Shown here: piece by piece, positions 11,734-61,855 of the stretch
How positions within the stretch are numbered: position 1 is the stretch's first letter
Layout: each line of letters begins with the position of its first letter
Assembly: GCA_964515005.1 (NCBI GenBank)
Contig: CAZEVT010000001.1
Span: 125,521 to 189,520 of the forward strand
DNA length: 64,000 nt
Direction of reading: 5' to 3'
From: an uncultured Gammaproteobacteria bacterium
Lineage (GTDB): Bacteria > Patescibacteriota > Microgenomatia > UBA10105 > UBA927
Position numbers and translations under genes: made by a program
Notes under the pieces: model-generated
What the model was told of the DNA's origin: nothing
What the model saw: the letters and a program-made list of their open reading frames with translations, nothing else
Databases searched by the model: none

Positions 11734-11734
11734 G

Positions 11735-11806
11735 TGGGCCAGCTTGGTGACGATCCAAGTACCCCCAACTTATAAGGTTGGTGCTCTACCGATGAGCTAC
11801 TGGCCC
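11735..11806 (-). tRNA. tRNA-Ile with anticodon UAU (72 nt, no encoded CCA)
   Basis: Minus-strand cloverleaf: acceptor GGGCCAG/CTGGCCC, D-arm GCTC-ATCGGTA-GAGC, anticodon stem CCAAC/GTTGG, loop CTTATAA, T-arm CTTGG-ATCGTCA-CCAAG. The T-loop is non-canonical (A54, U58). Confidence 0.6.
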
Positions 11807-11835: not shown

Positions 11836-13224
11836 TTATCCTTTAAGAAGTGCTCCCATTGAGGTCTCCAGCTCAAACGCACGCTTTTTATTGGCGCCGA
11901 AGCATATATAGCCAAACCGGTGTGTCGAGAGCGCACTCACACAGGTGATAACAATGCCCTCACCGGTTTGTTTATCAAAAAGAATGGGGGCAAGAACGGT
12001 TCGGAGCTGATCAAACGTGAGCGCGCGTTTCTTGGGTAATTCAAATAAATTATTAAACAGGATATACGTCCGGTATAAAAAGTCCTTCCCGAACAACTGC
12101 TCAGCCGCGACAAACACGTGTGTGCCGCCGGTTCGTCGGACGTTACTCTCCGTCACATAGAGTTGCCCGTTTTTGGCGGCGAGGAAATCGACGTCATAAT
12201 AGCCACGGTACCCCGATGCCCGGTACTGTTCGCCGATATAAAACCCTGTGTCAATCATCCGGGCAAGCAAACGGTCGGTGACGACATCATTGCCGATTTC
12301 CATACCCTTAAATACTCCCTGGGTTACCCGCATGCCGCCGTAGTACAAGTAGTCTACTCGTCCGTTTTTCAATATTCGAAATTCTACATTGGGAAATCCT
12401 CCGGCAACCGCTGGATTAACCGAGATAAATGATTCAATCACAATAGGAAACATCCCCCAATAATCGTCCTTTTTTAAAACCTCGAGAATGGCCTGTTCGC
12501 ATACCGGGTAATCCGTCGGCAAATCACCTTCTTCAAACAGAAGCACGCCTGATCCTGCATGCCCTTTATTTGTTTTGATAACGACGCCGTGTTCTTTGAT
12601 GTATTTTTTTGCCGCGATTTTGGCGGCATCCACGATACCCATACAAATCATTCCCTCGGGCATGATGAGATCCGGTTCTGCGGCTCGACTTTCCCCAGCA
12701 AGTTGCCGAATACCGGACTTACTTCCGTAGAAATTTACCGTCCATGAATCTTCTTCTTCCGGCGCATCGGGCGTCATGACGCTAAGTCCTTTTCCTTTCA
12801 ACTCATCGACCAAATGAAGAAATTGTTCTGACGTTGTATAACTGGTCAGTACCAATCTCTTGGATCCGTTGGCCGCTGCCATAATTCCCTGCATGACCTC
12901 ATCGTCTTCGAGAATATCTTCGCAGATGACGCCTGAATGTTTTTGCGGCACAAGAATGCGAATACTTCGTTTCCCAAATAACTCCGTGTAGTACCGAAAA
13001 AATGATTCATCAACCTGCTGGGGAAAAATAAAAAGAATATTGTCTTCATCCGCGCAGGTGAATAAATCCCGTTCACACAAATCCGCATTTTCTTTTATTT
13101 CAAACAGTTTGGCCTTCGCGTCGGACATGGCGCTGATGAATGGCCACACGTCCTCCGACATGTTAAAAATGTATACAGTTGTTTCAGGAAATTTTTGTAT
13201 CGCGAGCGGCTCTTCCATTGGCAC
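11836..13224 (-). CDS. ATP-grasp fold ligase of unknown specificity
   Basis: A Gly-rich loop VIKTNKGHAGSGVLLF and the ATP-grasp catalytic signature YDVDFLAAKNGQLYVTESNVRRTGGT. Confidence 0.6.
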   Translation of the reverse strand: MPMEEPLAIQKFPETTVYIFNMSEDVWPFISAMSDAKAKLFEIKENADLCERDLFTCADEDNILFIFPQQVDESFFRYYTELFGKRSIRILVPQKHSGVICEDILEDDEVMQGIMAAANGSKRLVLTSYTTSEQFLHLVDELKGKGLSVMTPDAPEEEDSWTVNFYGSKSGIRQLAGESRAAEPDLIMPEGMICMGIVDAAKIAAKKYIKEHGVVIKTNKGHAGSGVLLFEEGDLPTDYPVCEQAILEVLKKDDYWGMFPIVIESFISVNPAVAGGFPNVEFRILKNGRVDYLYYGGMRVTQGVFKGMEIGNDVVTDRLLARMIDTGFYIGEQYRASGYRGYYDVDFLAAKNGQLYVTESNVRRTGGTHVFVAAEQLFGKDFLYRTYILFNNLFELPKKRALTFDQLRTVLAPILFDKQTGEGIVITCVSALSTHRFGYICFGANKKRAFELETSMGALLKG

Positions 13225-13278: not shown

Positions 13279-15633
13279 TTATAATCTCGCCCGCTCCGAA
13301 ATCTCGGCTTCGATAAGTTCACGCGAACGACCGTACTTGAGGCGCGACAGTTGAATGATTGCTTCAGCAACTTTCGGATTTCTCCCGGCATTCACCGCAC
13401 TCATGTCTTTAGTTAAATCCATGCTGAAAGGCTTCACCGGTTCATTGTGCACATTGGTTTTAATGTACGCATTATATTTATCGATGTTGATGAGATCTGC
13501 CTCATTAAACGTCGGCTGGAATTCATGCTGGAGATAGTTAGCATCCGTCACTCCGACGCGAAACGCAACCACGGAGCCGACATTGCCAAACACCGCGTTT
13601 TTCACTTCCTCTTCCATCTGTCCGATAAATTGATTGGCAACGATCAAATTTAACCTATATTTCCGCGCCTCGGAAAGAATCTGTGCAAAGTCCGGCGTTG
13701 CAAAGTTTTGAAACTCATCAACATAGAGATAAAAGTCGCGCCGCTTGTCCTCGGGAATTTCCTGACGGCTCATGGCCGATATGAGAATGCGGGGAACCAG
13801 AATGAGACCCAAGAAGTTGCTGTTTTCCTCGCCCACTTTTCCCTTGGCAAGATTGACGAGCAGAATTTTCCCCTCATCCATCACTTTACGGAAATCAAAA
13901 CTCGACTCCGATTGTCCGATGATGTTGCGCATGAGTTTATTGGTGACAAACCGGCCGAATTTCGACACGATATAGTCGAGTACTTCCGACTTATGAAAGT
14001 CTGCGGTTTGGGCAATCTGATCCGTCCAGTATCTGCGGATGATGGGATCCTGCAACTTCGGTAACAATTCCTGGACAAATGAACTGTCGGTCAAAACCCG
14101 CACGACCTCGACAAACGTATTGCCGGGTTCCACCATGACGGTCAACATCGCGTTTCGGATGGCGTGTTCAAACCGGGGACCGATAATACCGGTTTTCATA
14201 GGGTCATAGAGCTTGTACATGAGTCCCACAATTGACGTCACGACAAAATGTTTCTGTTCTTCGGTTTTGGCCTCAAGCATGTTAAGCCCCATCGGTCGGT
14301 CGGTGTCCGACGGGTCAAAATAAATAACATCTTCAGCCCGCTCGGGAGGAATGCGGTTGATGACGCCGTCAATAAGATCTCCGTGGGGGTCAACAACGGC
14401 ACACCCCTTGCCTGCCCGAATATCCTGCACGATCATTTCCTCAAGAAGCTGCGATTTTCCGGTACCGGTTTTTCCGATGATGTAGACGTGGCGCCTTCGG
14501 TCTTCATCACTTATGAATATCGGCCGTTCCACTCCGCGGTACCGGGACTTTCCTAAATACAGGCCCTGCGTCGGAATCTGGGACGGAGCGGGCGCGCGTT
14601 TGGCGTTGAGCCAGAAAATATGGGCTGTTTCCACGGATTTGTTCGGCAAATGATAGACGGTTGCCAACTCGTCGCTGTTTAAAACGCTGTACTGCGGCAG
14701 AAATGATGGATTCACCGCCGGAAAGTAACGGTAGATAAAATCGAGCATAAAGAGTTTCTTCATAAACCACGGAAACTTCACTTTCGTAAAATTATTGTGG
14801 TCGCTTGAGAATTGGCCGAAACTCGTCAGGAGATTATCAAGATGCATTTTAGCGCTTTCGTCGGTCGCCGAAGACACCACCAGTCGAATGACCGCGTTAA
14901 ATCCGGGTTTGCCTGTTTTTTGCTCAACTGCTTCAAGGGACTTGGGGTCAATCTTGAAGCTCGCTTTTTCAGGATTTGCCTCATCTTTTTTGGTTTTTGA
15001 AATGTAGGAACGGCCCAGACTTCGCCACTTGCTTCCGGTCGGCTGAATCAGAAGTTGAATAACCGCGCCTTCCCCTTCGCGCATTTTCGCGAGTACCGAT
15101 GTGATCGAGGACAACGGATCGGTGGGTAAATCCCGGAATACGCGAATGGGCATATGGTTGGCGTTTTTGAGGCGAAGCGCGGCAAAAGCGACTTTCCCGT
15201 TTTGACTAAATATCGAATACTCTTCCACTTCTTTTATATCCGCCCCGGGATAAGCCCCGTGAATCTGTTTTTCGACAAGATCCATAAGCTTTCGGGGTAC
15301 CGAAACATAGAAGCGTATATCTTCTTGTCTTGCCACAATCTCAAATGAAAAATGCGGTTGAGGCTTCAAAAAAGACCAAAATCCGCTTTTATAAATGCTG
15401 TAGAGACTGGCAAACATCTGCTCCGCCGCATCTATTTTAATTTCATTCTCGCGCGGAACGGCAATTTGAAGGAGTACATATTCGAGCGACTTCTCTTCCC
15501 TGTCCCGGTATTTCCACAAGAGAAACGCAATATACGAAACAAGCGCAACGCCTCCAAGAACTAGGAGTAAAAAGACAAGCGTGACGCCAAATACTTGCAG
15601 CTGATAGATAATATCTAATGTTTGATCCTGCAT
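13279..15633 (-). CDS. Membrane-anchored FtsK/HerA/TraD-like P-loop ATPase (coupling-protein/DUF87 type)
   Basis: Two N-terminal TM helices. Walker A VYIIGKTGTGKSQLL...VVDPHGDLID resembles TraD/TrwB. Walker B YLYVDEFQNF. ARKYRLNLIVANQ resembles the HerA/VirB4 RKYG motif. Confidence 0.7.
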   Translation of the reverse strand: MQDQTLDIIYQLQVFGVTLVFLLLVLGGVALVSYIAFLLWKYRDREEKSLEYVLLQIAVPRENEIKIDAAEQMFASLYSIYKSGFWSFLKPQPHFSFEIVARQEDIRFYVSVPRKLMDLVEKQIHGAYPGADIKEVEEYSIFSQNGKVAFAALRLKNANHMPIRVFRDLPTDPLSSITSVLAKMREGEGAVIQLLIQPTGSKWRSLGRSYISKTKKDEANPEKASFKIDPKSLEAVEQKTGKPGFNAVIRLVVSSATDESAKMHLDNLLTSFGQFSSDHNNFTKVKFPWFMKKLFMLDFIYRYFPAVNPSFLPQYSVLNSDELATVYHLPNKSVETAHIFWLNAKRAPAPSQIPTQGLYLGKSRYRGVERPIFISDEDRRRHVYIIGKTGTGKSQLLEEMIVQDIRAGKGCAVVDPHGDLIDGVINRIPPERAEDVIYFDPSDTDRPMGLNMLEAKTEEQKHFVVTSIVGLMYKLYDPMKTGIIGPRFEHAIRNAMLTVMVEPGNTFVEVVRVLTDSSFVQELLPKLQDPIIRRYWTDQIAQTADFHKSEVLDYIVSKFGRFVTNKLMRNIIGQSESSFDFRKVMDEGKILLVNLAKGKVGEENSNFLGLILVPRILISAMSRQEIPEDKRRDFYLYVDEFQNFATPDFAQILSEARKYRLNLIVANQFIGQMEEEVKNAVFGNVGSVVAFRVGVTDANYLQHEFQPTFNEADLINIDKYNAYIKTNVHNEPVKPFSMDLTKDMSAVNAGRNPKVAEAIIQLSRLKYGRSRELIEAEISERARL

Positions 15634-15636
15634 AGC

Positions 15637-16008
15637 TTACACTTTCACCCTCAATACCTTCCCTCCAATCGCCTTAAGCCCCATGTGGAGCTGCTTGAGT
15701 CTTCTCATGCACCACGTCGCAAGCCACCGCCAGGAGCTGGCAATGCTTTGATTAAGCCCTGTTGCTATCTGATCATCGGTAAGAGGCAAAACAGTGCTTG
15801 TCGCAGGCATCGGGACATTTGCCCCAACCGGGGCGACTCCCATCTTGGCTACCGGCTGTGGCACCGGAATCGTCGTTGGGTGAATCGTCACGCCCGCCGA
15901 TGCGAGCTCTTTTGGAAGTGAATCTCCCTCGCCGCGCCCCGCCTCCGGGGCCGTGGTGGTCTCGGGGGCACTCGATGGGCCAGTGACTCTTTCGGGCAGA
16001 TCGCTCAT
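15637..16008 (-). CDS. Small Pro/Ala/Thr-rich hypothetical protein (123 aa)
   Basis: The ORF sits 3 nt upstream of the ATPase gene. It is low-complexity with a conserved-looking C-terminal segment SWRWLATWCMRRLKQLHMGL. Confidence 0.35.
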   Translation of the reverse strand: MSDLPERVTGPSSAPETTTAPEAGRGEGDSLPKELASAGVTIHPTTIPVPQPVAKMGVAPVGANVPMPATSTVLPLTDDQIATGLNQSIASSWRWLATWCMRRLKQLHMGLKAIGGKVLRVKV

Positions 16009-16020
16009 AGATTCATCATA

Positions 16021-17547
16021 TCACGTGGCGTACGCAAATATTACTCCTTGCGGCGCAAATTGTGGATAAAAGGTGTTTTTTTTGGCTTTTTTCTGTTTTG
16101 TTTTGCCCAAGTGGGTCAGATTTTGGACCGTCTTCATCCCGCCCTCGCGTATCATCGTAAGATGCCAAATGATCGCAAGGAGTATCCACCGAGTAAGCTC
16201 GCGTTGAACAAGACGTTCCGAAATTGCTCTAATTTTTATTTTGCTATCTTCTAACGGAACATGACTGCGTTTCTGCAGGAAGATCCACCATACAAAAGCG
16301 AGTGCAAAATCGAGTACTTGCTCCCGTTTCCTCTGTTCGGGCCTCCTAAGACGTATCTTATCCATTCGTTCTTTCTTTCGAATAAGTTTTTTGGCAAGCA
16401 TCAGTAAGCGAACAATTTTTTCCGTCTTCACTTTTTCCTTTTGCCTCATTGGCTTGGCTTCAATAACTATTTTTTTCTTTTTCAATACTCTTTTTTCCAT
16501 CAACAAAACTCTTTGCTCCCTCTTTGATTGAACCGTGCGTTTCTTTTCCATTTTTCTTAATACACGCACTTCTTTCTTCATTTTTATTCTTTTTGCTTTT
16601 TTTTCATGTCGGGCAATAGATTTTTTCATTTCGGGAATAATCATTCTAGATCTTAATTTCATTTCGCTTGCCAAAAGTATCTGCGGAGTTTGCAGAGCTT
16701 GAGGCAGTTTTTTCTTATTACGTTTTACTTCCGTATGCTTCTTGTGATCGATAAATTTAACTTCGGCCACCGATTTCGGCTTTTGCCGTAGCATATTTTT
16801 GACACGATCGGTAAATGATTGTTTTAGAGATTGACGCATGTCTTCTACGGGTCTGCTGTGTCGTCTTTCAATATACCTTTGTACAGAACGCACTGTATGT
16901 CCAACCTCCCTCATCGTTTGTTTGCCGGCATAATGAACAACATCAATAGCCTGATTCGCAATATGCACAGGTAATGGCTTATCAGTTAATATAAAGACGT
17001 CTTTCGCAGGTTGAATTTTTAGTAAGTTAGAAAATGAGTCTTTTGCAACGGACTGAATAGCATCAAAACTGTGCTTGTTCTCAGTTGAGATGATAGCGGT
17101 AGTCCCTTTACCTGTATTGTGGTCAAACTTCATTACCCATACATCTTTATAATCCCCATCATTTCTGTGATAACTCGTCACAACGTGTGTCGCACCGTTT
17201 CGAATAGACTCCTGCATCAACATGTCCGCTTGTTCCTGGACCAATGAGTACTGCTCCGGGTTTAATCGACGAGCTTTCTCATGAAGTTCATTTAACGTAC
17301 TTCCGTACTCGGGATAATATACCTCCCCCTTCTCATTCAAAACAAAATTAGGCCCCGGATATTCTGTTTTCCCCGACAGCTCGTTATTGATTGATGCCAT
17401 ATCTTGCTTATATCGGGGACGAAAAAGACGGGCAGTTTCGTGGCGGACTTCTGAGGGTAACCAATCTGTGTGCTGCGAGGCTACCTGCGTGTTTAGTTCT
17501 TCGTAGGATAAAAAAAATGTTTGTCTTTTACAATCGCATGATGGCAT
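16021..17547 (-). CDS. Hypothetical protein with an extremely K/R-rich central region (~130 aa) and C-terminal hydrophobic helices
   Basis: A globular N-terminal domain of about 270 aa. The central stretch KKAKRIKMKKEVRVLRKMEKKRTVQSKREQRV... is highly basic. Hydrophobic segments FALAFVWWIFL and WILLAIIWHLTMI follow. Confidence 0.4.
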   Translation of the reverse strand: MPSCDCKRQTFFLSYEELNTQVASQHTDWLPSEVRHETARLFRPRYKQDMASINNELSGKTEYPGPNFVLNEKGEVYYPEYGSTLNELHEKARRLNPEQYSLVQEQADMLMQESIRNGATHVVTSYHRNDGDYKDVWVMKFDHNTGKGTTAIISTENKHSFDAIQSVAKDSFSNLLKIQPAKDVFILTDKPLPVHIANQAIDVVHYAGKQTMREVGHTVRSVQRYIERRHSRPVEDMRQSLKQSFTDRVKNMLRQKPKSVAEVKFIDHKKHTEVKRNKKKLPQALQTPQILLASEMKLRSRMIIPEMKKSIARHEKKAKRIKMKKEVRVLRKMEKKRTVQSKREQRVLLMEKRVLKKKKIVIEAKPMRQKEKVKTEKIVRLLMLAKKLIRKKERMDKIRLRRPEQRKREQVLDFALAFVWWIFLQKRSHVPLEDSKIKIRAISERLVQRELTRWILLAIIWHLTMIREGGMKTVQNLTHLGKTKQKKAKKNTFYPQFAPQGVIFAYAT

Positions 17548-21844: not shown

Positions 21845-22368
21845 AGCCTTAGTATATCATCTAGACGTATTTTCGCAACATTGAACACTTCTTGTTCCAA
21901 CGCTTTAACTTTGGGATAACTTTCATCAAGAATCTTTTGGGCATCCGGCGGCAGGTGTTCTTCCTTCCATAAACGGAATCGCTCGTCGACCCCGACTATA
22001 TCATACTTGACCATCTTGTCGGCAAGGTACAAAAGCTTCTGTTCCCAGGTTTTGGGCGAAATCGCGGGGTCTAGGATTGCATGTAACGGATGGGTGACAA
22101 CAACATCGGCAATCTCTCCCATCCCTTCTTCCCTCAAAATCCGCACCGCGGTATCCGGATGCTTTTCACCGTCTAAACGCGGCACTGCTTTGTCAATGTC
22201 ATGGAGTAGTGCGGCAGCTTGTAACAACTCGGTGTTGATTGTTTCCTGCGTCAGTTTCGCAGCCAAAAACATCGCCACCCGCATCACCAACCCCACGTGT
22301 ACGCGCTTTTGTTCGGGTAACAGGTACTTCTCCCAAAGCTTTTTTGCTTGATCAACAGACGGAATCAT
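21841..22368 (-). CDS. HD-domain phosphohydrolase
   Basis: AALLHDIDKAV shows the HD motif and the helical HD fold. Confidence 0.7.
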   Translation of the reverse strand: MIPSVDQAKKLWEKYLLPEQKRVHVGLVMRVAMFLAAKLTQETINTELLQAAALLHDIDKAVPRLDGEKHPDTAVRILREEGMGEIADVVVTHPLHAILDPAISPKTWEQKLLYLADKMVKYDIVGVDERFRLWKEEHLPPDAQKILDESYPKVKALEQEVFNVAKIRLDDILRL

Positions 22369-22748
22369 AGAGATCGTGGATTTTGCACAACAATATCTTT
22401 CATTGGAAAATGACGAACATTAAGCGTGTAAAGAACCCCTTGATGTACTTTTGCTGTAGCCGCAATAATACAATCGAGCATGCTAAGACCAGATAGCTTG
22501 ACATGAAATTGATTCCAATAATATCCCGCTTCTCTTGCTATCTGTGCACTTACGGGAATAATTCGCTGATAGGTAATAAAATCTTCTGTCGAAGTAAGCT
22601 CTGAAGGGAAAATATTTTTATAAAGCTCTGCGATCGTAATCGTAGAAATAGCACTTTCATGTTTACTGACACCCTGCTTAAGGGCTTGAATGATGGCTGT
22701 GTCCCGCCGAAGAATCCAAATAGCGATATCGGTATCTAATACGTACAT
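22365..22748 (-). CDS. vapC: PIN-domain toxin (VapC-like)
   Basis: MYVLDTDIAIWILRRD places an acidic residue in the PIN position. It overlaps the upstream antitoxin gene. Confidence 0.7.
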   Translation of the reverse strand: MYVLDTDIAIWILRRDTAIIQALKQGVSKHESAISTITIAELYKNIFPSELTSTEDFITYQRIIPVSAQIAREAGYYWNQFHVKLSGLSMLDCIIAATAKVHQGVLYTLNVRHFPMKDIVVQNPRSL

Positions 22749-23026
22749 TAGAACTTCCTTTCATCCGCGAGTCTACTTTTGCGGAGCCATCGTTCCACGT
22801 TCTTTTTTGTCGCCCACTCGGGGTGATTTTTGGCGGTAAATGTGCCTGCCACTCGGTCCAGCATCGCGGTAAATGCTACAGGATCCCATTTCTTTTTTCC
22901 GACTATCTCTACTAAATCTTCATTCTCTTTCTCATCTCTCACCACGACATGGACGCCCGATTGTGCCTTCGCAAAGTAATCCGACATATTTTGCCGAAAC
23001 TGACTGATAGAAACCGTTATCGTCAT
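22748..23026 (-). CDS. Type II antitoxin (Phd/YefM-like N-terminus)
   Basis: MTITVSISQFRQNMSDYFAKAQSGVHVVV. It overlaps the PIN gene by 1 nt. Confidence 0.55.
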   Translation of the reverse strand: MTITVSISQFRQNMSDYFAKAQSGVHVVVRDEKENEDLVEIVGKKKWDPVAFTAMLDRVAGTFTAKNHPEWATKKNVERWLRKSRLADERKF

Positions 23027-39422: not shown

Positions 39423-39800
39423 CTAATATACCTCCTGCCAGGAATTGATAATGAGTTCGGTATTTTGAAAACGTGCAGAAACGGATGCCGTTCGGACAAA
39501 GTTTCCGGCCTCCCCACGGGAAACGACGATCATCGGATCCCCTCCTGTTATAGTAACTGTGGCACTCCCGCCATCGATAGTCAAGGTTTCCGTACCCCTG
39601 ACGGTCGGATCTCGGACGAGCCGTAAGAGTGCATTTTCAGCGCCGGACTCCGCAACACGCAGGGCCGATTCTCCTTGTTCTACTTGGCTAGCCGCCTGCG
39701 AATTGATAATGACAAGTGCAACTGCCATCGTCGTCATGATGATGGCAACGACCATAAAAACCAGAAGTACAACTAACGCTTGACCTTTGTTTTTTTTCAT
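39423..39800 (-). CDS. Pilin-like protein (non-canonical N-terminal hydrophobic helix)
   Basis: KGQALVVLLVFMVVAIIMTTMAVALVI is pilin-like but lacks a clear GFTLxE motif. Confidence 0.45.
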   Translation of the reverse strand: MKKNKGQALVVLLVFMVVAIIMTTMAVALVIINSQAASQVEQGESALRVAESGAENALLRLVRDPTVRGTETLTIDGGSATVTITGGDPMIVVSRGEAGNFVRTASVSARFQNTELIINSWQEVY

Positions 39801-40276
39801 CGTAGTGCTATCGTTGTTTCCAATGTTTTTGATGGTAATGGAGGAACCGTTTGCGTCGTGCTGTCGATGGTAAACTGCACATGAATGGAGTTTTTTTCAC
39901 CAGGATTGCCCAAACGGGTAAAGGTTAGATTTGAAATTGCCGACCCGAAGCTTGTGAGGTTGTGACTTCCCTCATTGTTCGCCAGTAAGAGCGAATTCTC
40001 GCTTATTGCATAGGTGTTGGCGACCCCTGCGATAGTAAGAACGAGTGTCGCAGCACTATCTCCCGGTGATGCCGGCGTGACGATATCCGAAGCTCTCCCA
40101 ATGTCATAGGCCAGACGGCCAAACACATACCTGCTGTCTTCTTCGACCTCGCCAACTGCGGTACTTGAAAGTTGCATATCCAAAATCCCCGTGAACATAC
40201 GCGTCAAAATCACCATCATAACAGTGAGGAGCCCCATATAGACAATCATTTCGACAATGGTAAATCCCTTTTTCAT
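39797..40276 (-). CDS. Prepilin-type minor pilin (pseudopilin)
   Basis: MKKGFTIVEMIVYMGLLTVMMVIL. Confidence 0.75.
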   Translation of the reverse strand: MKKGFTIVEMIVYMGLLTVMMVILTRMFTGILDMQLSSTAVGEVEEDSRYVFGRLAYDIGRASDIVTPASPGDSAATLVLTIAGVANTYAISENSLLLANNEGSHNLTSFGSAISNLTFTRLGNPGEKNSIHVQFTIDSTTQTVPPLPSKTLETTIALR

Positions 40277-40277
40277 A

Positions 40278-42224
40278 TCATGGGGAATAGTTCACTGTCA
40301 TATCTGTAAATATTGGTGCAGAAAATGCATCCGAAGTCACCAGAAACGCTTTATATCGGAAACATCGGGCCGGATTCTTATACCCTGACCCGCTTGAGAG
40401 CGGAATCGCAGCGCTTGTTGCAAATTTCGTCCCTCCGGTTCCATCAGGACCCACATAGGTAAACGCAGCACCCGCACAACTGCCGGCAACTGCATCTGCT
40501 CCGGAAACTTGATACGTAAGTGTTGTATTGGCAGGCAATATGCTGTTTGCAATAAACCGATTGAATGCCGCCGAATTCGTGGCGTCAAATGTGCGGGACT
40601 CAAACGTTCCGCTATTTGAATAAATCCCACCCGGCCCGCCCTGGATAATCTTAAGCTCTGCATTTGAATCTCCTGTGATAATATACGAAAACGTATCGCC
40701 ATCCGCTTCAATAACCGAAGAAATTCCATTGACCCCTGTTGAAATGGCCAGCCCACCGCTTCGGTTGTGGTTCGTACAATGGATGGGGATTGTTTCATCG
40801 GTTATATCGATCACGACATATTGCTGGCTGCCGCCTGTGCCGACAATGATTGCTTTATTTCCGGGTACGACCGTAACTGCTTTTGGACTCATCCCGTCTG
40901 TGGCATATGATCCTATGGATGAAAGCGTTCCTGATTTCGTCGTGGTGTTAATGACAAAAAACTCTGATTTACCGCTTGCATATACGGTGGACAAATACGC
41001 ACGGGTCCCCGTTGAATTTACCACGACGTCGGTTCCAGCCCCGGCCGTCAAATTTACGTTTGCGACCACCGTCGGGCTTGCGGAATTGGCTACATTTACA
41101 ATCTGCATTTGGGTCGCTGCCGAATCTATCGCTACATACGCGTATGTACCTACGACGACTGTTTTGATGCCGGTTCCGGCAAGCGTCGTTGTGCCAAGTT
41201 GTGGTCGAGAACCCGATTTGCTGGACAAATTAAATGTATAAAAGTTACTGCCGCTTGCCATGTAGCCGACATTCCCCGATACAAATATGCTGTCACCGTC
41301 GCCATTGCCTGGTGCGTTAAAATATCCCGCCTCCGAGTATGGATTGGTGACGAGATTGATAATTTCTATTTCTTTGGAATTGTTATCAGTCGCCAAATAG
41401 GCATAATTGGTTTCTCCAAAAACATCGTTTGTTTTATACCCATCGAACGTGCCAGATACCGTCGCATGGGGAGGATCGGCATTATCGACAAGGACCGTCG
41501 CATACGACACGCCGGACGAATTATCTCCGGTACCCGTAAACACTTTCCCTTCGATTGCGGAAACCGCATTTGCTACACCATTTTTGGGAAGATCCACGGC
41601 CGCAATAGTTAGGTTTGGTGCACACCAATCGCCTTTACCTCCCGCTCCCAACGTCACTTCGCCATCCCACGTGTCGGTCGTGATAACGTCGCTTTTGGTC
41701 CCCGCGTCAAAATCCGCCTGGGTTGTTTGCACCCACACATTACTCGTTAAACGGGTCAGATAAAAGGCTGACGTGACCGCGGAGGCAATAGGAGTCCCCC
41801 AGGAAACCGCGACCGTCACGTGTTTCGTAGACGGATCCAACGAACCACCCGACTCCACAATAACACCGCTTGCGTCCCGTAATACATCCGCAATCACAAT
41901 CGACCTGGTATATCCCTGTATTGATTCGGTCCCCGACACCAGGGACCATGTTGACCCCGCCACGACGGGGTGATATGTTCCAGTAGTCGCAACATTCGAC
42001 CAGCCTGCCGCGCGTACCACCCGTATGGCCTCTCCGGCCTCGCGGGCAAGGGCCGTTGCCTCAAGCCGCTGCCTTTGCTGTGCCTGCCCCTGACGGGATG
42101 CAACAAAACCCGCCGTGATGCCGGGAATAAGAATGGCGCTCACGCCGAGGGCGACCAACAGCTCGATCAGGAGCTGACCCTTTTGAAATCTTAATTTTTT
42201 ACTCAACCGATATAACAGCGCCAT
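40278..42224 (-). CDS. Large prepilin-like protein (648 aa), candidate pilus tip/adhesin subunit
   Basis: The N-terminus is KGQLLIELLVALGVSAILIPG. It is followed by a ~600 aa Ser/Thr/Gly-rich beta-rich domain. Confidence 0.65.
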   Translation of the reverse strand: MALLYRLSKKLRFQKGQLLIELLVALGVSAILIPGITAGFVASRQGQAQQRQRLEATALAREAGEAIRVVRAAGWSNVATTGTYHPVVAGSTWSLVSGTESIQGYTRSIVIADVLRDASGVIVESGGSLDPSTKHVTVAVSWGTPIASAVTSAFYLTRLTSNVWVQTTQADFDAGTKSDVITTDTWDGEVTLGAGGKGDWCAPNLTIAAVDLPKNGVANAVSAIEGKVFTGTGDNSSGVSYATVLVDNADPPHATVSGTFDGYKTNDVFGETNYAYLATDNNSKEIEIINLVTNPYSEAGYFNAPGNGDGDSIFVSGNVGYMASGSNFYTFNLSSKSGSRPQLGTTTLAGTGIKTVVVGTYAYVAIDSAATQMQIVNVANSASPTVVANVNLTAGAGTDVVVNSTGTRAYLSTVYASGKSEFFVINTTTKSGTLSSIGSYATDGMSPKAVTVVPGNKAIIVGTGGSQQYVVIDITDETIPIHCTNHNRSGGLAISTGVNGISSVIEADGDTFSYIITGDSNAELKIIQGGPGGIYSNSGTFESRTFDATNSAAFNRFIANSILPANTTLTYQVSGADAVAGSCAGAAFTYVGPDGTGGTKFATSAAIPLSSGSGYKNPARCFRYKAFLVTSDAFSAPIFTDMTVNYSP

Positions 42225-42687
42225 AGCGATTGATGGTAATAACTTTAGACTCGTTGGTAAGGGTCTGCGTCAGGGTAACCGAGTTTGCGGCATCGGAGAA
42301 TCCCACGACGTCTCCGCTTCCTTTGTCAAATATGATGGACGCGCCAGGAAGATCAATGACGCTAAAGGTGATATTCGTAGGAAGCGGGAATGCTGCGTTT
42401 GTCGGATCTGCCCCGTTAAAACTTGTCCCTTTAAAAAGGACATACTGATTTGTTTGGAAATTGATACCAAATGCCTGTGCCGTCGTCTCACCCTGGGTAT
42501 ACCCGGACATCGCTTTGGTCTGCGCCCCACGCATATCAGCCAACACCGTCGTTACTGTTGCGCTCAATGGAGCTCGCCGTTCAATACTGGTTGCCCGAAC
42601 AATGCTCAACGCCAGAAGAGTCGTCATAATTCCCATGACAACGAGTACTTCTATGAATGTAAAACCTTGCTTTTGCATGGTAATCAA
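42199..42687 (-). CDS. Prepilin-type minor pilin
   Basis: QGFTFIEVLVVMGIMTTLLALSIV. Confidence 0.75.
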   Translation of the reverse strand: MITMQKQGFTFIEVLVVMGIMTTLLALSIVRATSIERRAPLSATVTTVLADMRGAQTKAMSGYTQGETTAQAFGINFQTNQYVLFKGTSFNGADPTNAAFPLPTNITFSVIDLPGASIIFDKGSGDVVGFSDAANSVTLTQTLTNESKVITINRYGAVISVE

Positions 42688-43739
42688 CGTCTTGCCCCCA
42701 CCTGACTGATGAGTCCATAGACCGGCGCGATAATCGCAAGCATCATTCCTCCGACGACCACCCCGACTGCCACGAGTAGTATAGGTTCCAAAAGCGAAGT
42801 AAGTGTTTTGAGGGTGTTGGTCACCTCATAATCAAAATATTCCGATATATCCTGCATGGATTTATCGAGCGTCCCGGTTTTTTCCCCGGCTTCCATAAGT
42901 TTGATCATAAGGGGCGGAATATATCCTTTTGACGCACGAAACCCTTCGGACAACTTCTTACCCGCAAATACCATATCACGCGAGGTCTTAATGATTTCCG
43001 CAGTTTTTTTTCGGATAACCACATCGGAGGTAAGCTCGAGCGCGGACGTTATGGAAAGGCCGGAAGAAAGGAGTAGATGCAAACTACGGGAAAATCTTGT
43101 AATGTCAATTTGTATAATCAGATTCGACACGATAGGCAGGGAATAAAAAAGATCAAGAAACACGGCCCGCTTATTCCGATACATGATAATCGCCAGAGCG
43201 ACAAAAAGAAACAGTCCTAAAAGAAAAAGTGCCGTGTTTTTCACAAGGAGATTAGAAAGAAAAATAAGAATTTGTGTCGGGAGAGGAAGATCAACCCGAA
43301 GCCTCTCAAATACCGTCGAAATTTTCGGCACAACAACCACCAGAATCATAAGCAGTACTCCAAAAAACACCACGACGATAAAAAGGGGGTACACCATTGC
43401 TGAACGCACTTTATCCCCAAATTCAATTTCTTTTTGAATGGTCACTTTGAGGTCCCGAAGCGTCACGTCGAGCGTCCCTGCTTCCTCCGATGCTTTGATG
43501 ACGGAAACCGTCACCTTATCAAACACCCGGGGAAATTTCGACAACGTCACATACACGTGTTTCCCCTGAATAAGATCCTCATGGAGCGTCTCGAGAATTT
43601 TCTTTTGTCCACCCTTGGCATCCTCAAGAAGGGAGTTGATAACATCCAGTATGGGAATGCCGGCGGTAAGCATGGTCGCCAGGCTCCCGATAAACGCTAT
43701 TTTTTCACTATTTTTGAGTTTTATATTTTGGTCCGTCAT
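42684..43739 (-). CDS. pilC: Type IV pilus inner-membrane platform protein PilC (GspF family)
   Basis: Duplicated GspF-like helical domains with three TM segments. It overlaps pilB by 4 nt. Confidence 0.88.
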   Translation of the reverse strand: MTDQNIKLKNSEKIAFIGSLATMLTAGIPILDVINSLLEDAKGGQKKILETLHEDLIQGKHVYVTLSKFPRVFDKVTVSVIKASEEAGTLDVTLRDLKVTIQKEIEFGDKVRSAMVYPLFIVVVFFGVLLMILVVVVPKISTVFERLRVDLPLPTQILIFLSNLLVKNTALFLLGLFLFVALAIIMYRNKRAVFLDLFYSLPIVSNLIIQIDITRFSRSLHLLLSSGLSITSALELTSDVVIRKKTAEIIKTSRDMVFAGKKLSEGFRASKGYIPPLMIKLMEAGEKTGTLDKSMQDISEYFDYEVTNTLKTLTSLLEPILLVAVGVVVGGMMLAIIAPVYGLISQVGARR

Positions 43740-45439
43740 AAGGATTCCACTTTAGTGACGCGGATAACTTCATCTATGGTCGTGAGACCCCGTCTGACCT
43801 TATCCAGCCCATCATCAAGCATCGTCGTCATCCCCTCGTCAATCGCCGATTTATTGATCGCATCCGAATCATTCTTTTCCGTTACTCTCCGCCGGATCTC
43901 CTTTGAAACTTCCAGCACTTCAAACACCCCGAGGCGGCCCGAATAGCCGGTAGTATGACAAATCTTACAGCCCTTTCCTTTATAAAGGGTCAACGCTGGT
44001 TCATCGCCGAAATGTTTTTTGATTACCTCCGCCGGCAAATGTCTGGCGAGCTCTTCCTGGGTGACCGTCTGTGTCGTTTTACACATGTCGCAGATTTTAC
44101 GCACCAGACGCTGGGCGATGATGATGTTGACGGTGGAGGCCACCAAAAACGGTTCGACTTTCATGTCCGAGAGTCTGGGAATAGCTGTTGCCGCATCGTT
44201 GGTGTGAAGGGTCGAAAGTACTAAGTGACCGGTGAGGGCGGCGTTGACCGCGATCCCCGCCGTCTCACTGTCGCGAATCTCGCCGACGAAGATGATATTG
44301 GGGTCCTGGCGGAGAATTGACCGCAGCCCGTTGGCAAATGTGAGGTTGGTCTTCGGGTTGACCTGTACCTGATTGGCTCCCTTGATGCGGTACTCGACCG
44401 GATCTTCCACCGTCGTGATGTTTTTTTCACGCGTGTTGAGGATTTTCAATATGGAATAAATCGACGTTGTTTTCCCCGACCCAGTCGGGCCGGTCGAGAG
44501 AATCATGCCGTATGATTTGTTGTATGCAGCCGTCACTTTTTGCAAATCTTTTTCACTCATGCCCAAATCCGTCAGTGTAATCTCCCGACTCCGCGAAGAC
44601 AAAAGACGAAGGACTGCTTTTTCTCCCTCGACGATCGGGATAATGGACACACGGATATCCAGATTTTCCTCTTCAAGGGCAAGGCGCATCTTGCCGTCCT
44701 GCGCGCTCATGTGTTCATCGGTGCGAAGTCCGGAGAGTACTTTGATGCGCGTCATGATGCGGTCATGGAGCACTTTGGGAACCCGAAGCACCTCGTGAAG
44801 GACGCCGTCGATACGGAAACGGATGAGGGAATTGTGTTCTTCCGGTTCGATATGGATATCGGACGCCTTATCCTGATAGGCCGCGTCTATAAGGACGTCG
44901 ACGATTTTGGCAATCGGCAAATCATCATAGACTGCGGCAGTTGCTTTTTTAATATCTTCTTTCAAAAGCTCGTCGATCGTTTTTTGAAGGACTTTTTTGT
45001 AAACCTGCAGCGTATTTTCAATATCCCGGTCCGTTGCATAGTGGACAAATACCCGTGCATTTGTTTTTTTGGCAACCATCTCGACAATCGCGTTGTTGGC
45101 TGGATCCGATAAGGCCATCTTGACCCCGTTTTGATCGCGGGCAAATGCAATAGCTTTCTGCTTTTTGGCTGTTTTTTCCGGAATGATATGAAATACGTCC
45201 TCCGGAATCGTAAACGTGGAAAGAGCGACAAACGGTACGTTTAAAGACTGGGCAACAAGCGCACCTATTTGCTCATCAGTCAGTACCCCTTTTTCCACTA
45301 AGGCCGCAGACAACGGAACGTTAGCGGTTTCGGCAAATTTTATGGCTTCGGATAGTTTGGCCGGGTCACCGGTGCCACTCTTAGTCACGAGCGCCGCTAG
45401 CTCCTTGTTGGACAGGATCATAGATCTATCATACAACAA
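43736..45439 (-). CDS. pilB: Type IV pilus assembly ATPase PilB (GspE family)
   Basis: Walker A LSTGPTGSGKTTSIY, a CxxC tetracysteine region (CDMCKT...CKIC), and Asp and His boxes. Confidence 0.92.
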   Translation of the reverse strand: MLYDRSMILSNKELAALVTKSGTGDPAKLSEAIKFAETANVPLSAALVEKGVLTDEQIGALVAQSLNVPFVALSTFTIPEDVFHIIPEKTAKKQKAIAFARDQNGVKMALSDPANNAIVEMVAKKTNARVFVHYATDRDIENTLQVYKKVLQKTIDELLKEDIKKATAAVYDDLPIAKIVDVLIDAAYQDKASDIHIEPEEHNSLIRFRIDGVLHEVLRVPKVLHDRIMTRIKVLSGLRTDEHMSAQDGKMRLALEEENLDIRVSIIPIVEGEKAVLRLLSSRSREITLTDLGMSEKDLQKVTAAYNKSYGMILSTGPTGSGKTTSIYSILKILNTREKNITTVEDPVEYRIKGANQVQVNPKTNLTFANGLRSILRQDPNIIFVGEIRDSETAGIAVNAALTGHLVLSTLHTNDAATAIPRLSDMKVEPFLVASTVNIIIAQRLVRKICDMCKTTQTVTQEELARHLPAEVIKKHFGDEPALTLYKGKGCKICHTTGYSGRLGVFEVLEVSKEIRRRVTEKNDSDAINKSAIDEGMTTMLDDGLDKVRRGLTTIDEVIRVTKVESL

Positions 45440-47343: not shown

Positions 47344-47724
47344 CTAAAATGCTCGCTGAAGTTTTTTATCAAAAGTTTTGAATTCTTTTGCTCCTTTTGT
47401 TTTTGCATACACCAAATTGTATGCATCTTCTAGATCAAAAGAACCTTCTTGATATATCAAACCTGCTTTCTGCAACATAGATCGTTCTTCTATATCCAGA
47501 AACTGCATATTGAGAATCTGCAGAAGCAACGTAGCAATGTCCTTTTTGTCTTTTTTATAAAAACTTGTCAACACCCAATAAAGCTCAAAAATAACGACCG
47601 TTGACGTAAATAATTTCTTTTTACCGGTTGCGCCACTCCGAAACAACGATTTAGCCTTCTCGTACTGATCAACAACATCTGCGCGAAGGAATCGAAGAAA
47701 ATAATTCGTATCAACAAAAATCAT
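47344..47724 (-). CDS. vapC: PIN-domain toxin (VapC-like)
   Basis: MIFVDTNYFLRFL. It overlaps the upstream antitoxin gene by 4 nt. Confidence 0.7.
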   Translation of the reverse strand: MIFVDTNYFLRFLRADVVDQYEKAKSLFRSGATGKKKLFTSTVVIFELYWVLTSFYKKDKKDIATLLLQILNMQFLDIEERSMLQKAGLIYQEGSFDLEDAYNLVYAKTKGAKEFKTFDKKLQRAF

Positions 47725-47975
47725 GATTTCTTTTTCTTGAAATACTCATGCTTTGCTATTTTAATGATTTCATCTTCTGATTTTCCTCTATACCTCTTGG
47801 GAACTCTGAGCGATCCTGCCAGAGATTCAACTAAAGATATAGCCGGCTCAATGATAAGTTGATTTCCTATAGCACGAACAAGTACTTTTTTTGTGGTTTG
47901 TAAGCCGAGCTGTTCAAATAGTAAAGCCGGAATAGTCAATTGCCGTTTGCTCGTAATCGTTGCTATCTGTTGCAT
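47721..47975 (-). CDS. vapB: AbrB/MazE-type (SpoVT-AbrB fold) antitoxin
   Basis: KRQLTIPALLFEQLGLQ...LIIEP is a swapped-hairpin motif. Confidence 0.6.
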   Translation of the reverse strand: MQQIATITSKRQLTIPALLFEQLGLQTTKKVLVRAIGNQLIIEPAISLVESLAGSLRVPKRYRGKSEDEIIKIAKHEYFKKKKS

Positions 47976-51867: not shown

Positions 51868-52788
51868 CTACTGAACCAGAACTACCTGATTTTGACTATT
51901 TTGTCTATACGGGTCAAATGTATGATTGCTGTAAAACGTATATTTCCCAAAGCCCGCCTTGTCTAAATATTTCATTAATTTCTTTTTGGGAAGCAACCAG
52001 CAGCGGGTTTTATACTGTTCTATATCTAACCTTCTAAATAATCCTTGTCGTATGAATATGTGGTCATGCACGATATATGGATCTACATTATGATACACCT
52101 TGAGATACACATTTTTTTGCTTCATGTATTGGTACAGGGAAGGCAGGCCTATTTCTACAATCCATTTATGTTTTGAATAAAATATACGCGGTATCTTCCA
52201 GGTATCAAAAATTTTTATAGATATATTTTTTCGCTTAACAATATCGTAAGAGATCTCATCTATAGATCTCATCTCCACATTAGGAGGATTGTTCGCAATC
52301 CGATCTCCATTCCTATCCTCAATGAGGAGGAGGCCATTTTTAGACAAAAGCTTTTTAAGCTGGACGAGGGATTCTATTATTTGTTTTTCTGACGGTATTG
52401 CGGAAAGAACAAATTCGCACACAATAAGATCAAATTTTTCTTGAAAGTGAGATGCTAAATCCAAGCAATTCGCACGTACAACGTTGACATTATGTATATT
52501 TCTATCTTTGAGTATCTCACGCGCTATTTTCACCATTTTTTTGGAATAATCTACACCTACAATTCTGTGTATCCCGTCGATTTCGCTCAAAAGACAAAGA
52601 TGGAAACCATTCCCACACCCAACGTCTAAAACACTTTTTACTTTATATTGCTTAACTATTTTCTCATAGAAAGCGTGATCGTTTTCCCATCGTTCATTCC
52701 ATGAAAATGTCGATCCGTACACATCACCAAAACCGCCATCATAGGTTCTTTTTGTTAGTTCGTTATTTATGAGCGGGATAGATCTCAT
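51868..52788 (-). CDS. Class I SAM-dependent methyltransferase (AT-rich gene)
   Basis: Motif I VLDVGCGNGFHL. The gene lies in the ~33% GC stretch. Confidence 0.65.
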   Translation of the reverse strand: MRSIPLINNELTKRTYDGGFGDVYGSTFSWNERWENDHAFYEKIVKQYKVKSVLDVGCGNGFHLCLLSEIDGIHRIVGVDYSKKMVKIAREILKDRNIHNVNVVRANCLDLASHFQEKFDLIVCEFVLSAIPSEKQIIESLVQLKKLLSKNGLLLIEDRNGDRIANNPPNVEMRSIDEISYDIVKRKNISIKIFDTWKIPRIFYSKHKWIVEIGLPSLYQYMKQKNVYLKVYHNVDPYIVHDHIFIRQGLFRRLDIEQYKTRCWLLPKKKLMKYLDKAGFGKYTFYSNHTFDPYRQNSQNQVVLVQ

Positions 52789-61190: not shown

Positions 61191-61571
61191 TTATACCGCA
61201 AAACGAAGCTTTGGGATGCCTTGGTAGTGTTTTTTATTGCGTGTGGCCATCTTGGCTCCGATGGAAACGCTGGTAGCACCGACAATCAAATCAGCAAGGG
61301 CTGCGTCAGTGGTATGATCCCGCTTTGTCTGACCTGCAAATTCTGCAAGCTCAGTTCCGAGGGGAATAACAATAAAACCCTCAATAAGTTCCTTTAGTTT
61401 GCCAACAACCGCTTTTGACGACTTTCCGGCAAATAATTCAAGCACAGTCACTGCGGAAAGATATAATTCAACTTTGCCGTCCCGCTGGGCTTCAACAAGC
61501 TTCACTAACCCGCCACCGCCGGTTCGCAAGTAGTCGATGATAACATCACTATCAATAAGTACTTTCGTCAT
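61191..61571 (-). CDS. vapC: PIN-domain toxin (VapC-like)
   Basis: MTKVLIDSDVIIDYL. It overlaps the upstream antitoxin gene by 4 nt. Confidence 0.7.
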   Translation of the reverse strand: MTKVLIDSDVIIDYLRTGGGGLVKLVEAQRDGKVELYLSAVTVLELFAGKSSKAVVGKLKELIEGFIVIPLGTELAEFAGQTKRDHTTDAALADLIVGATSVSIGAKMATRNKKHYQGIPKLRFAV

Positions 61572-61834
61572 GAAAATATTGGCCGGCGCCAATAACGTTT
61601 TTCCCGGACTGTGCGGGTCCAGGCCGCTTCATTCTTCAAGACCCCCTTCAAACCCGGAAGCACGTGGGTAAGAATATAGTCTGCCTTGCCGGCCGCATCA
61701 TATCTCACCGGCACAATCTTCACGATCCGTTTCCCTTCTTTTTCCACTTCAATAATATCGCCTGTTTTGGCGACCCGCTCCATAATGGCAAATATATCTT
61801 TTCTCAACGCCGTGATTGGGAGAATATAGTTCAT
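61568..61834 (-). CDS. Type II antitoxin (Phd/YefM-like)
   Basis: MNYILPITALRKDIFAIMERVAKTGDIIEV. The start is ambiguous (ATG at 61832-61834 or at 61850-61852), and both lie inside the palindrome. Confidence 0.55.
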   Translation of the reverse strand: MNYILPITALRKDIFAIMERVAKTGDIIEVEKEGKRIVKIVPVRYDAAGKADYILTHVLPGLKGVLKNEAAWTRTVREKRYWRRPIFS

Positions 61835-61855
61835 ATGTACACTAGTGTACATATG
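61832..61855. promoter_or_regulatory. 24-bp perfect palindrome CATATGTACACTAGTGTACATATG at the antitoxin 5' end (candidate autoregulatory operator)
   Basis: Self-complementary by inspection. It shares the ATATGTACA half-site with the 23043-23060 palindrome. Confidence 0.5.

Follow-up and report, generated by a model that had tools for sequence, protein, structure and literature searches.

A membrane-tethered, coupling-protein-type ATPase with a VirB4-like N-terminal domain in a patescibacterial genome

Much of bacterial diversity belongs to the Patescibacteria, which make their living at the expense of other cells, and the crossing of macromolecules between such an epibiont and its host is an open problem. 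The closest described relatives of the gene considered here are the type IV coupling proteins (T4CPs) of this phylum. According to Quinonero-Coronel et al. 2025 (PMC12102498), VirD4-type T4CP homologues number 5,713 and are spread over 2,918 of the 3,035 Patescibacteria genomes surveyed, just 148 of these homologues lie near virB4, VirB4 is present in 2,417 genomes, and the type IV secretion systems (T4SSs) of the phylum derive from monoderm systems of the mating-pair formation (MPF) type MPF-FATA. In S. epibionticum, the only species tested, the T4SS is essential, but neither a coupling protein nor a relaxase is recognisable in the T4SS locus (Wang et al., PMC10633639). The present work concerns a gene for a 784-residue T4CP-type ATPase in a 64-kb stretch of contig CAZEVT010000001.1 (the whole stretch analysed is hereafter the window), from a genome placed in the Patescibacteriota. 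On the best reading, this ATPase derives from monoderm conjugation machinery and probably works for a T4SS whose genes lie elsewhere, unless it has been exapted.

The window ATPase is a further member of a known, annotated, published and functionally uncharacterised family, and as an ortholog it adds nothing unique. An initial annotation, made from the sequence alone, had implied that such an orphan is rare; the gene instead proved to be one ortholog within a huge, annotated, phylum-wide family, and the orphan position of patescibacterial T4CP homologues is already described (PMC12102498). The homologues reported there share with it the phylum, the orphan chromosomal position, the T4CP signatures and the near-universal spread, and the family, here called the DUF8128 family after its N-terminal domain, would belong to that published set because of its Pfam matches and NCBI names. 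What can be added is modest, namely a VirB4-like N-terminal domain (N-domain), a conserved small partner, and a link to the T4CP architecture of the plasmid pBM69 and of archaeal plasmids. The accessible portion of PMC12102498 contains no mention of the first two, and no description of any of the three was found in the searchable literature.

Domain architecture and sequence family

An uninterrupted open reading frame (ORF) with an ATG start fills the interval of the gene exactly (Table 1), and its product is built, in order, of a transmembrane (TM) anchor, a DUF8128 domain resembling the N-terminal domain of VirB4, and a T4CP-type nucleotide-binding domain. The anchor is the sole hydrophobic segment of the protein, with residues 5–42 above 1.6 in a Kyte-Doolittle window and residues 2–49 modelled by AlphaFold2 (AF2) as one long helix, and it is flanked by an acidic N-terminal tip and a basic WKYRDREEK stretch. 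An N-out/C-in topology is predicted, since the positive-inside rule favours it and the ATPase must be cytoplasmic. The Pfam match to DUF8128 (PF26449) is precomputed for the exact window protein and for all 120 listed homologues, and lies in the N-terminal region, of ~300 residues.

Table 1. Features of the ATPase gene and of the two ORFs upstream of it, in window coordinates
Feature	Residues	Coordinates	Strand	Basis or remark
T4CP-type ATPase gene	1–784	13279..15633	-	ORF; homologues at E=0; Pfam; AF2
N-terminal TM helix	~14–40	15514..15594	-	Hydropathy scan; AF2 helix, residues 2–49
N-domain, PF26449 (DUF8128), VirB4 N-terminal domain fold	44–345	14599..15504	-	
RecA-like nucleotide-binding domain, VirB4/VirD4 class	~355–740	13414..14571	-	
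Walker A, GKTGTGKS	387–394	14452..14475	-	Family alignment; TrwB alignment
All-helical insertion in nucleotide-binding domain	~458–586	13876..14262	-	AF2 secondary structure
Walker B, YVDEF	637–641	13711..13725	-	Family alignment
C-terminal two-helix hairpin, family motif LSRLKYGR	753–784	13282..13377	-	AF2; consensus
123-residue partner ORF		15637..16008	-	Sequence read directly
508-residue Lys/Arg-rich ORF		16021..17547	-	K 12.6%, R 8.7%

Within the nucleotide-binding domain, the Walker A motif is followed by a T4CP-like VDPHGD strand (residues 413–418), and the two together align with GATGTGKS...VDPNGD of TrwB; a conserved SEARKY motif (residues 654–659) follows Walker B. In a family alignment of 32 sequences, with relatives at 34–66% identity, both Walker motifs are invariant, the fixed residues including G387, G390, G392, K393, D415, P416 and G418 of the first pair and D639, E640, F641, E655, R657 and K658 of the second. 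The all-helical insertion appears to lie where T4CPs have their all-alpha domain, with 358 of 420 residues of TrwB-deltaN70 aligning, and in the model it may be the equivalent of that domain.

Three T4CP families of Pfam recognise the window ATPase above their cut-offs, namely TrwB_AAD_bind (34.9 bits against 20.5), TraG-D_C (25 against 22) and T4SS-DNA_transf (24.1 against 20.1), and so does DUF87 (25 against 23.2). Across the 32 diverse members, TrwB_AAD_bind is found in all 32, TraG-D_C in 31 and T4SS-DNA_transf in 19, these T4CP matches being partial and low-scoring. In NCBIfam the top matches are to TraD types and to the CD1115 VirD4-like family, all far under their equivalog cut-offs, and the product name given to members by NCBI is [quoted passage not shown]. 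In the PDB, TrwB is the best sequence match (E 8e-6), and TrwB and DotL are the sole meaningful ones. Since the ORF, the TM helix, the Walker motifs and the Pfam, NCBIfam and PDB matches all agree, the initial annotation was correct in calling this a membrane-anchored, coupling-protein-like ATPase. As in T4CPs, an N-terminal membrane anchor is present, here of one helix.

The same annotation had also labelled the protein FtsK-like and proposed that a gamma-domain-like DNA-binding module be sought. The label does not hold, and no such module was found: there is no FtsK_SpoIIIE motor domain and no Pfam match to a gamma domain in the protein, and the C-terminus is instead a two-helix hairpin, modelled as helices at residues 753–767 and 771–783. 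FtsK, SpoIIIE and TcpA are alike with the window ATPase in belonging to the ASCE (additional strand, catalytic E) FtsK-HerA superfamily and in being membrane-anchored, but FtsK and SpoIIIE carry a gamma winged-helix domain that binds FtsK-orienting polar sequences (KOPS) and a multi-pass N-terminal membrane domain, whereas the window protein has the hairpin and one TM helix. HerA is marked by a HAS barrel at its N-terminus and by a partner that is NurA or a defence effector, and neither was found for the window protein.

The AF2 model, built on the 32-sequence alignment, is confident (predicted local distance difference test 88.5, predicted template modelling score 0.80). When compared with the PDB by Foldseek, it retrieved the full-length TrwK/VirB4 of R388 at the top, with ~870 aligned columns over both domains, and TrwB second, over the ATPase portion only. 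In a structural comparison of selected ATPases the values were 29.9 for VirB4 of T. pseudethanolicus, 28.5 for the C-domain of DptH and 27.7 for TrwB, followed by HerA (24.9), DotL (23.7), Cagbeta (22.0), FtsK (15.9), TcpA (15.7) and EccC (15.7). Classical T4CPs such as TrwB of R388, VirD4, DotL and Cagbeta usually have two TM helices leading straight into the nucleotide-binding domain, whereas the window ATPase, at 12–17% identity to them, has one TM helix and a VirB4-type N-domain of 300 residues. From VirB4 proteins such as TrwK of R388 and that of T. pseudethanolicus it differs in that no AAA_10 or CagE_TrbE_VirB Pfam match is found in it, in that its score against the VirB4 model TIGR00929 is 19 bits where the cut-off is 643, in that true VirB4 goes undetected by a hidden Markov model (HMM) of the family, and in that it lies outside any T4SS locus. 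Co-encoding with VirB3, VirB6 and VirB8 was not found for the family in the related loci described below. As a separate observation, one of the 32 aligned members matches the Pfam family T4SS_pilin (E 1.8e-5), which may reflect its hydrophobic N-terminal helix.

Distribution in Patescibacteria and relatives elsewhere

Clustered at 90% identity, the family counts at least 7,675 groups that match with an E-value no worse than 1e-5; the best 120 are full length and 80–100% identical to the window ATPase, and 6,398 representatives at 50% identity match it at E 1e-30 or better. The window itself is a chromosome segment of a Gottesmanbacteria-like member of the Patescibacteria, and close homologues bear these names. 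Related loci were taken as the best 80 of at least 600 matches in a scan of one genome per species, and these span Microgenomates lineages, Dojkabacteria, WWE3, Saccharibacteria, Berkelbacteria, Peribacteria and Uhr-, Magasanik-, Falkow-, Doudna- and Staskawiczbacteria. The few records titled as other phyla are presumably mislabelled, their gene content looking patescibacterial. In all major classes among these 80 loci the ATPase gene lies in a housekeeping context, and searches by phmmer for homologues of the relaxase, TcpC, TcpE, VirB4 and VirB6 of pBM69 found none within ~8 kb, such single-sequence queries being sensitive for VirB4 and weak for the small components. No other conserved membrane component was found in the neighbourhood of the ATPase in the related loci. 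The GC content of the window gene (0.479, against 0.489 for the window) is that of native DNA, and the gene is vertically inherited, slowly evolving and chromosomally fixed in Patescibacteria.

Four of the loci (L044, L051, L052 and L061) each contain two ORFs matching the family ATPase. Those of L044 are adjacent full-length copies and those of L061 are parted by two small genes, while the halves in L052, of 397 and 457 residues, look like one split gene. Domain fusions of long members were also considered as clues to function and proved uninformative, the C-terminal extensions being Pro/Ala-rich and of low complexity and the N-terminal fusions being arrays of tetratricopeptide repeats (TPRs).

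Outside the phylum, tblastn matched the ATPase in 333 plasmid records, with ≥80% of the query covered in 43, from hosts including Streptomyces, Bacillus, Staphylococcus, Clostridium, haloarchaea and Sulfolobus. For example, pBM69 of Bacillus methanolicus encodes a DUF87 protein (WP_003349917.1) that is 24% identical over 748 residues (BLASTP E 8e-53) and that is matched by the N-domain HMM at E 1.7e-33. Its gene is followed by those for a Replic_Relax protein, TcpC, TcpE and a true VirB4 (AAA_10, E 2e-119), and a VirB6-like protein and a lytic transglycosylase/C40 peptidase are also encoded downstream, so that the homologue fills the coupling-protein slot of a Gram-positive (Tcp/ICEBs1-like) conjugation locus. 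The family HMM did not match the VirB4 of pBM69. The likeness of the pBM69 protein to the window ATPase is one of full-length homology, over N-domain and ATPase alike, while the differences are its plasmid location, its conjugation-gene flanks, its lack of an N-terminal TM helix and an identity of only 24%.

In a second example, plasmids of Natrinema carry the N-domain as a separate ORF of 375 residues (HMM E 1.8e-37) directly before a T4CP ATPase of 1,031 residues, in a locus that also holds pilin and conjugal-transfer genes. The haloarchaeal pair (Natrinema sp. DC36, WP_226043279.1 and WP_226043280.1) thus keeps both modules and their order, but differs from the window protein in the separation of the N-domain, in the long C-terminal extension of the ATPase and in its archaeal plasmid host. 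Because of the positions of the pBM69 and Natrinema genes, the family is a T4CP lineage with a VirB4-like N-domain that is native to monoderm and archaeal conjugative elements, and this agrees with the MPF-FATA origin of patescibacterial T4SSs given in PMC12102498. The N-domain thereby ties the chromosomal genes of Patescibacteria to a little-noticed T4CP architecture found in Firmicutes, Actinobacteria, archaeal plasmids and Bacillus phages. The plasmid pBM69 and the Natrinema plasmid were both typed as non-mobilizable by MOB-suite.

Further homologues depart from this architecture or from these hosts. Among the 150 closest representatives, 30 have no DUF8128 domain, and many of these carry TPR arrays instead. 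In the Chloroflexota member Phototrophicus methaneseepsis (CP062983.1, 3350011–3372026), a protein 53% identical over the ATPase domain only is encoded at the end of an operon with eight other genes, one ParA-like and seven of unknown function, beside which lie TIR, Cas1/Cas2 and reverse transcriptase genes. Homologues also occur in large, lytic Bacillus phages (phage G gp156, SPO1 gp27.4, and SPO1-like and Bastille-like phages), with ~80–88% coverage that includes the N-domain. A phage origin of the family was considered and rejected: a match to phrog_5156 is strong, yet only 11 IMG/VR contigs match, most over the ATPase domain alone, and the GenBank phage matches are Bacillus phages at ~20% identity.

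The small upstream partner and the role of the ATPase

Directly upstream of the window gene lies an ORF of 123 codons, the stop codon of which is 3 nt ahead of the ATPase start, with a Shine-Dalgarno-like GAGGG within its 3′ end. The N-terminal part of the encoded protein is Pro/Thr/Ala-rich and is followed by a conserved C-terminal segment, LPLTDDQI...SSWRWLATWCMRRLKQ; no TM segment was found in it, nor any match in Pfam, NCBIfam or PHROG. In the 70 loci with enough upstream sequence, a co-directional small ORF precedes the ATPase gene by ≤200 nt in 54 and by ≤30 nt in 36. The proteins have a common build, with a Pro/Thr/Ala-rich N-terminal part of low complexity and a short conserved C-terminal helix, and those of Microgenomates and Dojkabacteria have in common the motif LP[LI]T...W[LI]A.[WF]..R..K. 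Other classes have different small-protein families in the same upstream position. A single ancestry for these families (the "W-L-A" type of Microgenomates and F3, F20 and F21 of Parcubacteria) was tried and rejected, with hhalign probabilities of ≤0.2%, and only position and general build are conserved among them. The partner evolves faster than the ATPase, the former being 45–47% identical in genomes where the latter is 80–83% identical. In one parcubacterial protein (MBI2451308.1), the F20-type partner motif is fused to the N-domain at the place where the TM helix is expected, a single example that hints at physical association of partner and ATPase.

The initial annotation had paired the ATPase with a different protein, the basic, presumably nucleic-acid-binding, Lys-rich product of the 508-codon ORF that lies 12 nt upstream of the partner ORF. 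The conserved partner is instead the 123-residue protein. Relatives of the basic protein are confined to the closest genomes, as found by BLAST in 2 loci and by jackhmmer in 1 of 43 same-position proteins, and no Pfam domain was found in it. It is lineage-specific and no part of a conserved module. The three ORFs are probably co-transcribed, no terminator-like site having been found in either of the gaps between them; two weak 5-bp candidates lie inside coding sequence.

We favour, at a probability of about one half, the reading that this is a chromosomally fixed T4CP-type hexameric ATPase, tethered by a single helix, which docks through its VirB4-like N-domain and, together with the small partner, energises or loads a T4SS encoded elsewhere. 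The protein would then assemble as a membrane-tethered hexamer, with the N-domain as a membrane-proximal collar and the likely docking surface for an inner-membrane T4SS complex, and ATP hydrolysis would drive the substrate into the T4SS channel. To our knowledge, relaxases are nearly absent from Patescibacteria, so the substrate would probably not be a relaxase-piloted plasmid; the DNA transfer or uptake suggested in the initial annotation is possible. The small protein would be translationally coupled to the ATPase, and its conserved C-terminal helix may make it an adaptor or accessory subunit of that motor, as the pairs CagZ-Cagbeta, TraM-TraD and TraI-TraJ suggest by analogy. A T4CP-type motor family that is near-universal, slowly evolving, membrane-tethered and accompanied by a conserved small partner is, for those reasons, plainly a candidate for the component, missing so far, that energises or recruits for the patescibacterial T4SS, or else for an exapted machine, and its VirB4-like N-domain suggests a concrete and testable docking hypothesis.

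Several observations weigh against this reading. Family placement, both domain folds, gene context and conservation are shown by the data, while the hexamer, its docking and functional coupling to a T4SS, the binding of the partner and the substrate are parts of a proposal; in the window no gene of a T4SS was found, nor was one found by phmmer within ~8 kb in the best 80 loci. Wang et al. saw no recognisable coupling protein in the T4SS locus of S. epibionticum (PMC10633639). According to PMC12102498, T4CP homologues occur in 96% of genomes and VirB4 in 80%, and in S. epibionticum the T4CP homologue is non-essential while the T4SS is essential; membership of that T4CP gene in the DUF8128 family could not be shown. 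The closest ATPase-domain relatives outside the phylum (50–57% identity) carry unrelated N-termini, and the one such locus inspected, that of the Chloroflexota member, is not a recognisable T4SS locus. Finally, VirB4 and TrwB are equally near to the nucleotide-binding domain in structure and the N-domain resembles that of VirB4, so that a VirB4-like, non-coupling activity is possible.

Many of the same facts would suit an exapted, T4SS-independent module of two genes, in which ATPase and small partner would make up a membrane machine complete in itself, perhaps a translocase of protein or nucleic acid, or a dislocase, that serves the epibiotic lifestyle and is unlinked to the VirB4 system. The ATPase gene is always apart from T4SS genes in the best 80 loci, the unequal frequencies of T4CP homologues and VirB4 and the dispensability of the S. 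epibionticum homologue fit, and the authors of PMC12102498 state that exaptation "cannot be ruled out". Moreover, the ATPase is very strongly conserved in its housekeeping context, the co-directional partner is kept in 54 of 70 loci, and a partner-type motif takes the place of the TM anchor in the parcubacterial fusion. Yet one TM helix per subunit would make an autonomous macromolecule channel unlikely, and no other membrane component is conserved nearby. The separation from virB4 carries limited weight, T4CP genes being often far from it in ordinary conjugative systems (PMC12102498), and the incompleteness of metagenome-assembled genomes blurs the comparison of 96% with 80%. We consider such a module the main alternative, though clearly less likely than not. 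Less probable still is that the pair of small partner and DUF8128-T4CP constitutes a phylum-defining machine that no longer serves conjugation. It could be a VirB4-independent motor exchanging macromolecules with the host cell, or its N-domain could replace an outer-ring VirB4 protomer in docking on the T4SS, a mode of engagement that would be new for a coupling protein. In either form the reading, if true, would offer a way into the question of how macromolecules are acquired or delivered by Patescibacteria.

The VirB4-type N-domain and TM helix, which resemble VirB3-VirB4 fusions in their anchoring, also raise the idea of an assembly or dislocase ATPase that, instead of acting as a substrate receptor, extracts pilins or other small membrane-associated proteins or inserts them. 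This is improbable, since the signatures are T4CP-like, with AAA_10 weak and confined to 7 of 32 members and no CagE_TrbE_VirB match, and since the pBM69 homologue coexists with a bona fide VirB4 and adjoins a relaxase-like gene. Moreover, the upstream partner is without a TM segment, and the single T4SS_pilin match may reflect hydrophobic bias. Most doubtful of all is an FtsK-like translocase for chromosome segregation or dimer resolution, or a competence motor for DNA uptake. A gene for an Xer-type tyrosine recombinase and a DivIC/FtsB gene do lie just downstream of the ATPase gene in 19 Microgenomates and Dojkabacteria loci, and dnaX lies downstream in Parcubacteria; these neighbours hint weakly that the ATPase takes part in DNA transactions, and Xer and DivIC are not in this window. 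The dependence of Patescibacteria on scavenged nucleic acids (PMC11665869) would likewise suit an uptake motor. Set beside these alternatives, the reading of a T4CP-type motor that serves a distant T4SS is the one we retain.

The window and its other genes

The window supports the observation, made in the initial annotation, that the ATPase has no T4SS partners nearby. No VirB4, VirB6, VirB8, relaxase or cell-wall hydrolase was found in the 64 kb, either in the precomputed Pfam annotation of called genes (~3–26, 30–44 and 46–59 kb) or in a Pfam scan of the remaining large ORFs, and when all six frames were searched with the family HMM, no further FtsK/HerA-class ATPase of the family came to light. 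The neighbours are housekeeping genes, including those for NrdR, a class II ribonucleotide reductase, a cob(I)alamin adenosyltransferase, TsaD, a NUDIX protein and GroES/EL, together with two class A penicillin-binding proteins, a type IV pilus locus, TypA, RpoD and DnaG.

Directly downstream of the ATPase gene, after a gap of 54 nt, lies a gene (11836–13224, minus strand) for a 462-residue protein with Pre-ATP-grasp and PGM1_C-like matches and a likeness to amino-acid ligases, among them BesA and LdmS. Being confined to the closest relatives, this gene is no part of a conserved module. The type IV pilus locus (39423–45439, minus strand) contains PilB-like and PilC-like genes and several N_methyl prepilins, as well as a 648-residue pilin-like protein without a Pfam match, and is unlinked to the ATPase in related loci.

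A few further features of the window are of interest in their own right. In most bacteria AUA is decoded by a lysidine-modified CAU tRNA; here, ARAGORN identified a tRNA-Ile with the anticodon TAT (11734–11806, minus strand), which suggests a different strategy for AUA decoding in this organism. Between 52001 and 54000, the GC content dips to 0.39, from 0.49 for the window, in a region that may be acquired DNA and that adjoins an S-adenosylmethionine-dependent methyltransferase gene (51868–52788) and several small ORFs without matches. Finally, three pairs resembling PIN toxins and their antitoxins occur within these 64 kb of a small genome, at 22365–23026, 47344–47975 and 61191–61852, of which the first two have Pfam PIN matches and the third was judged by its ORF pattern alone.

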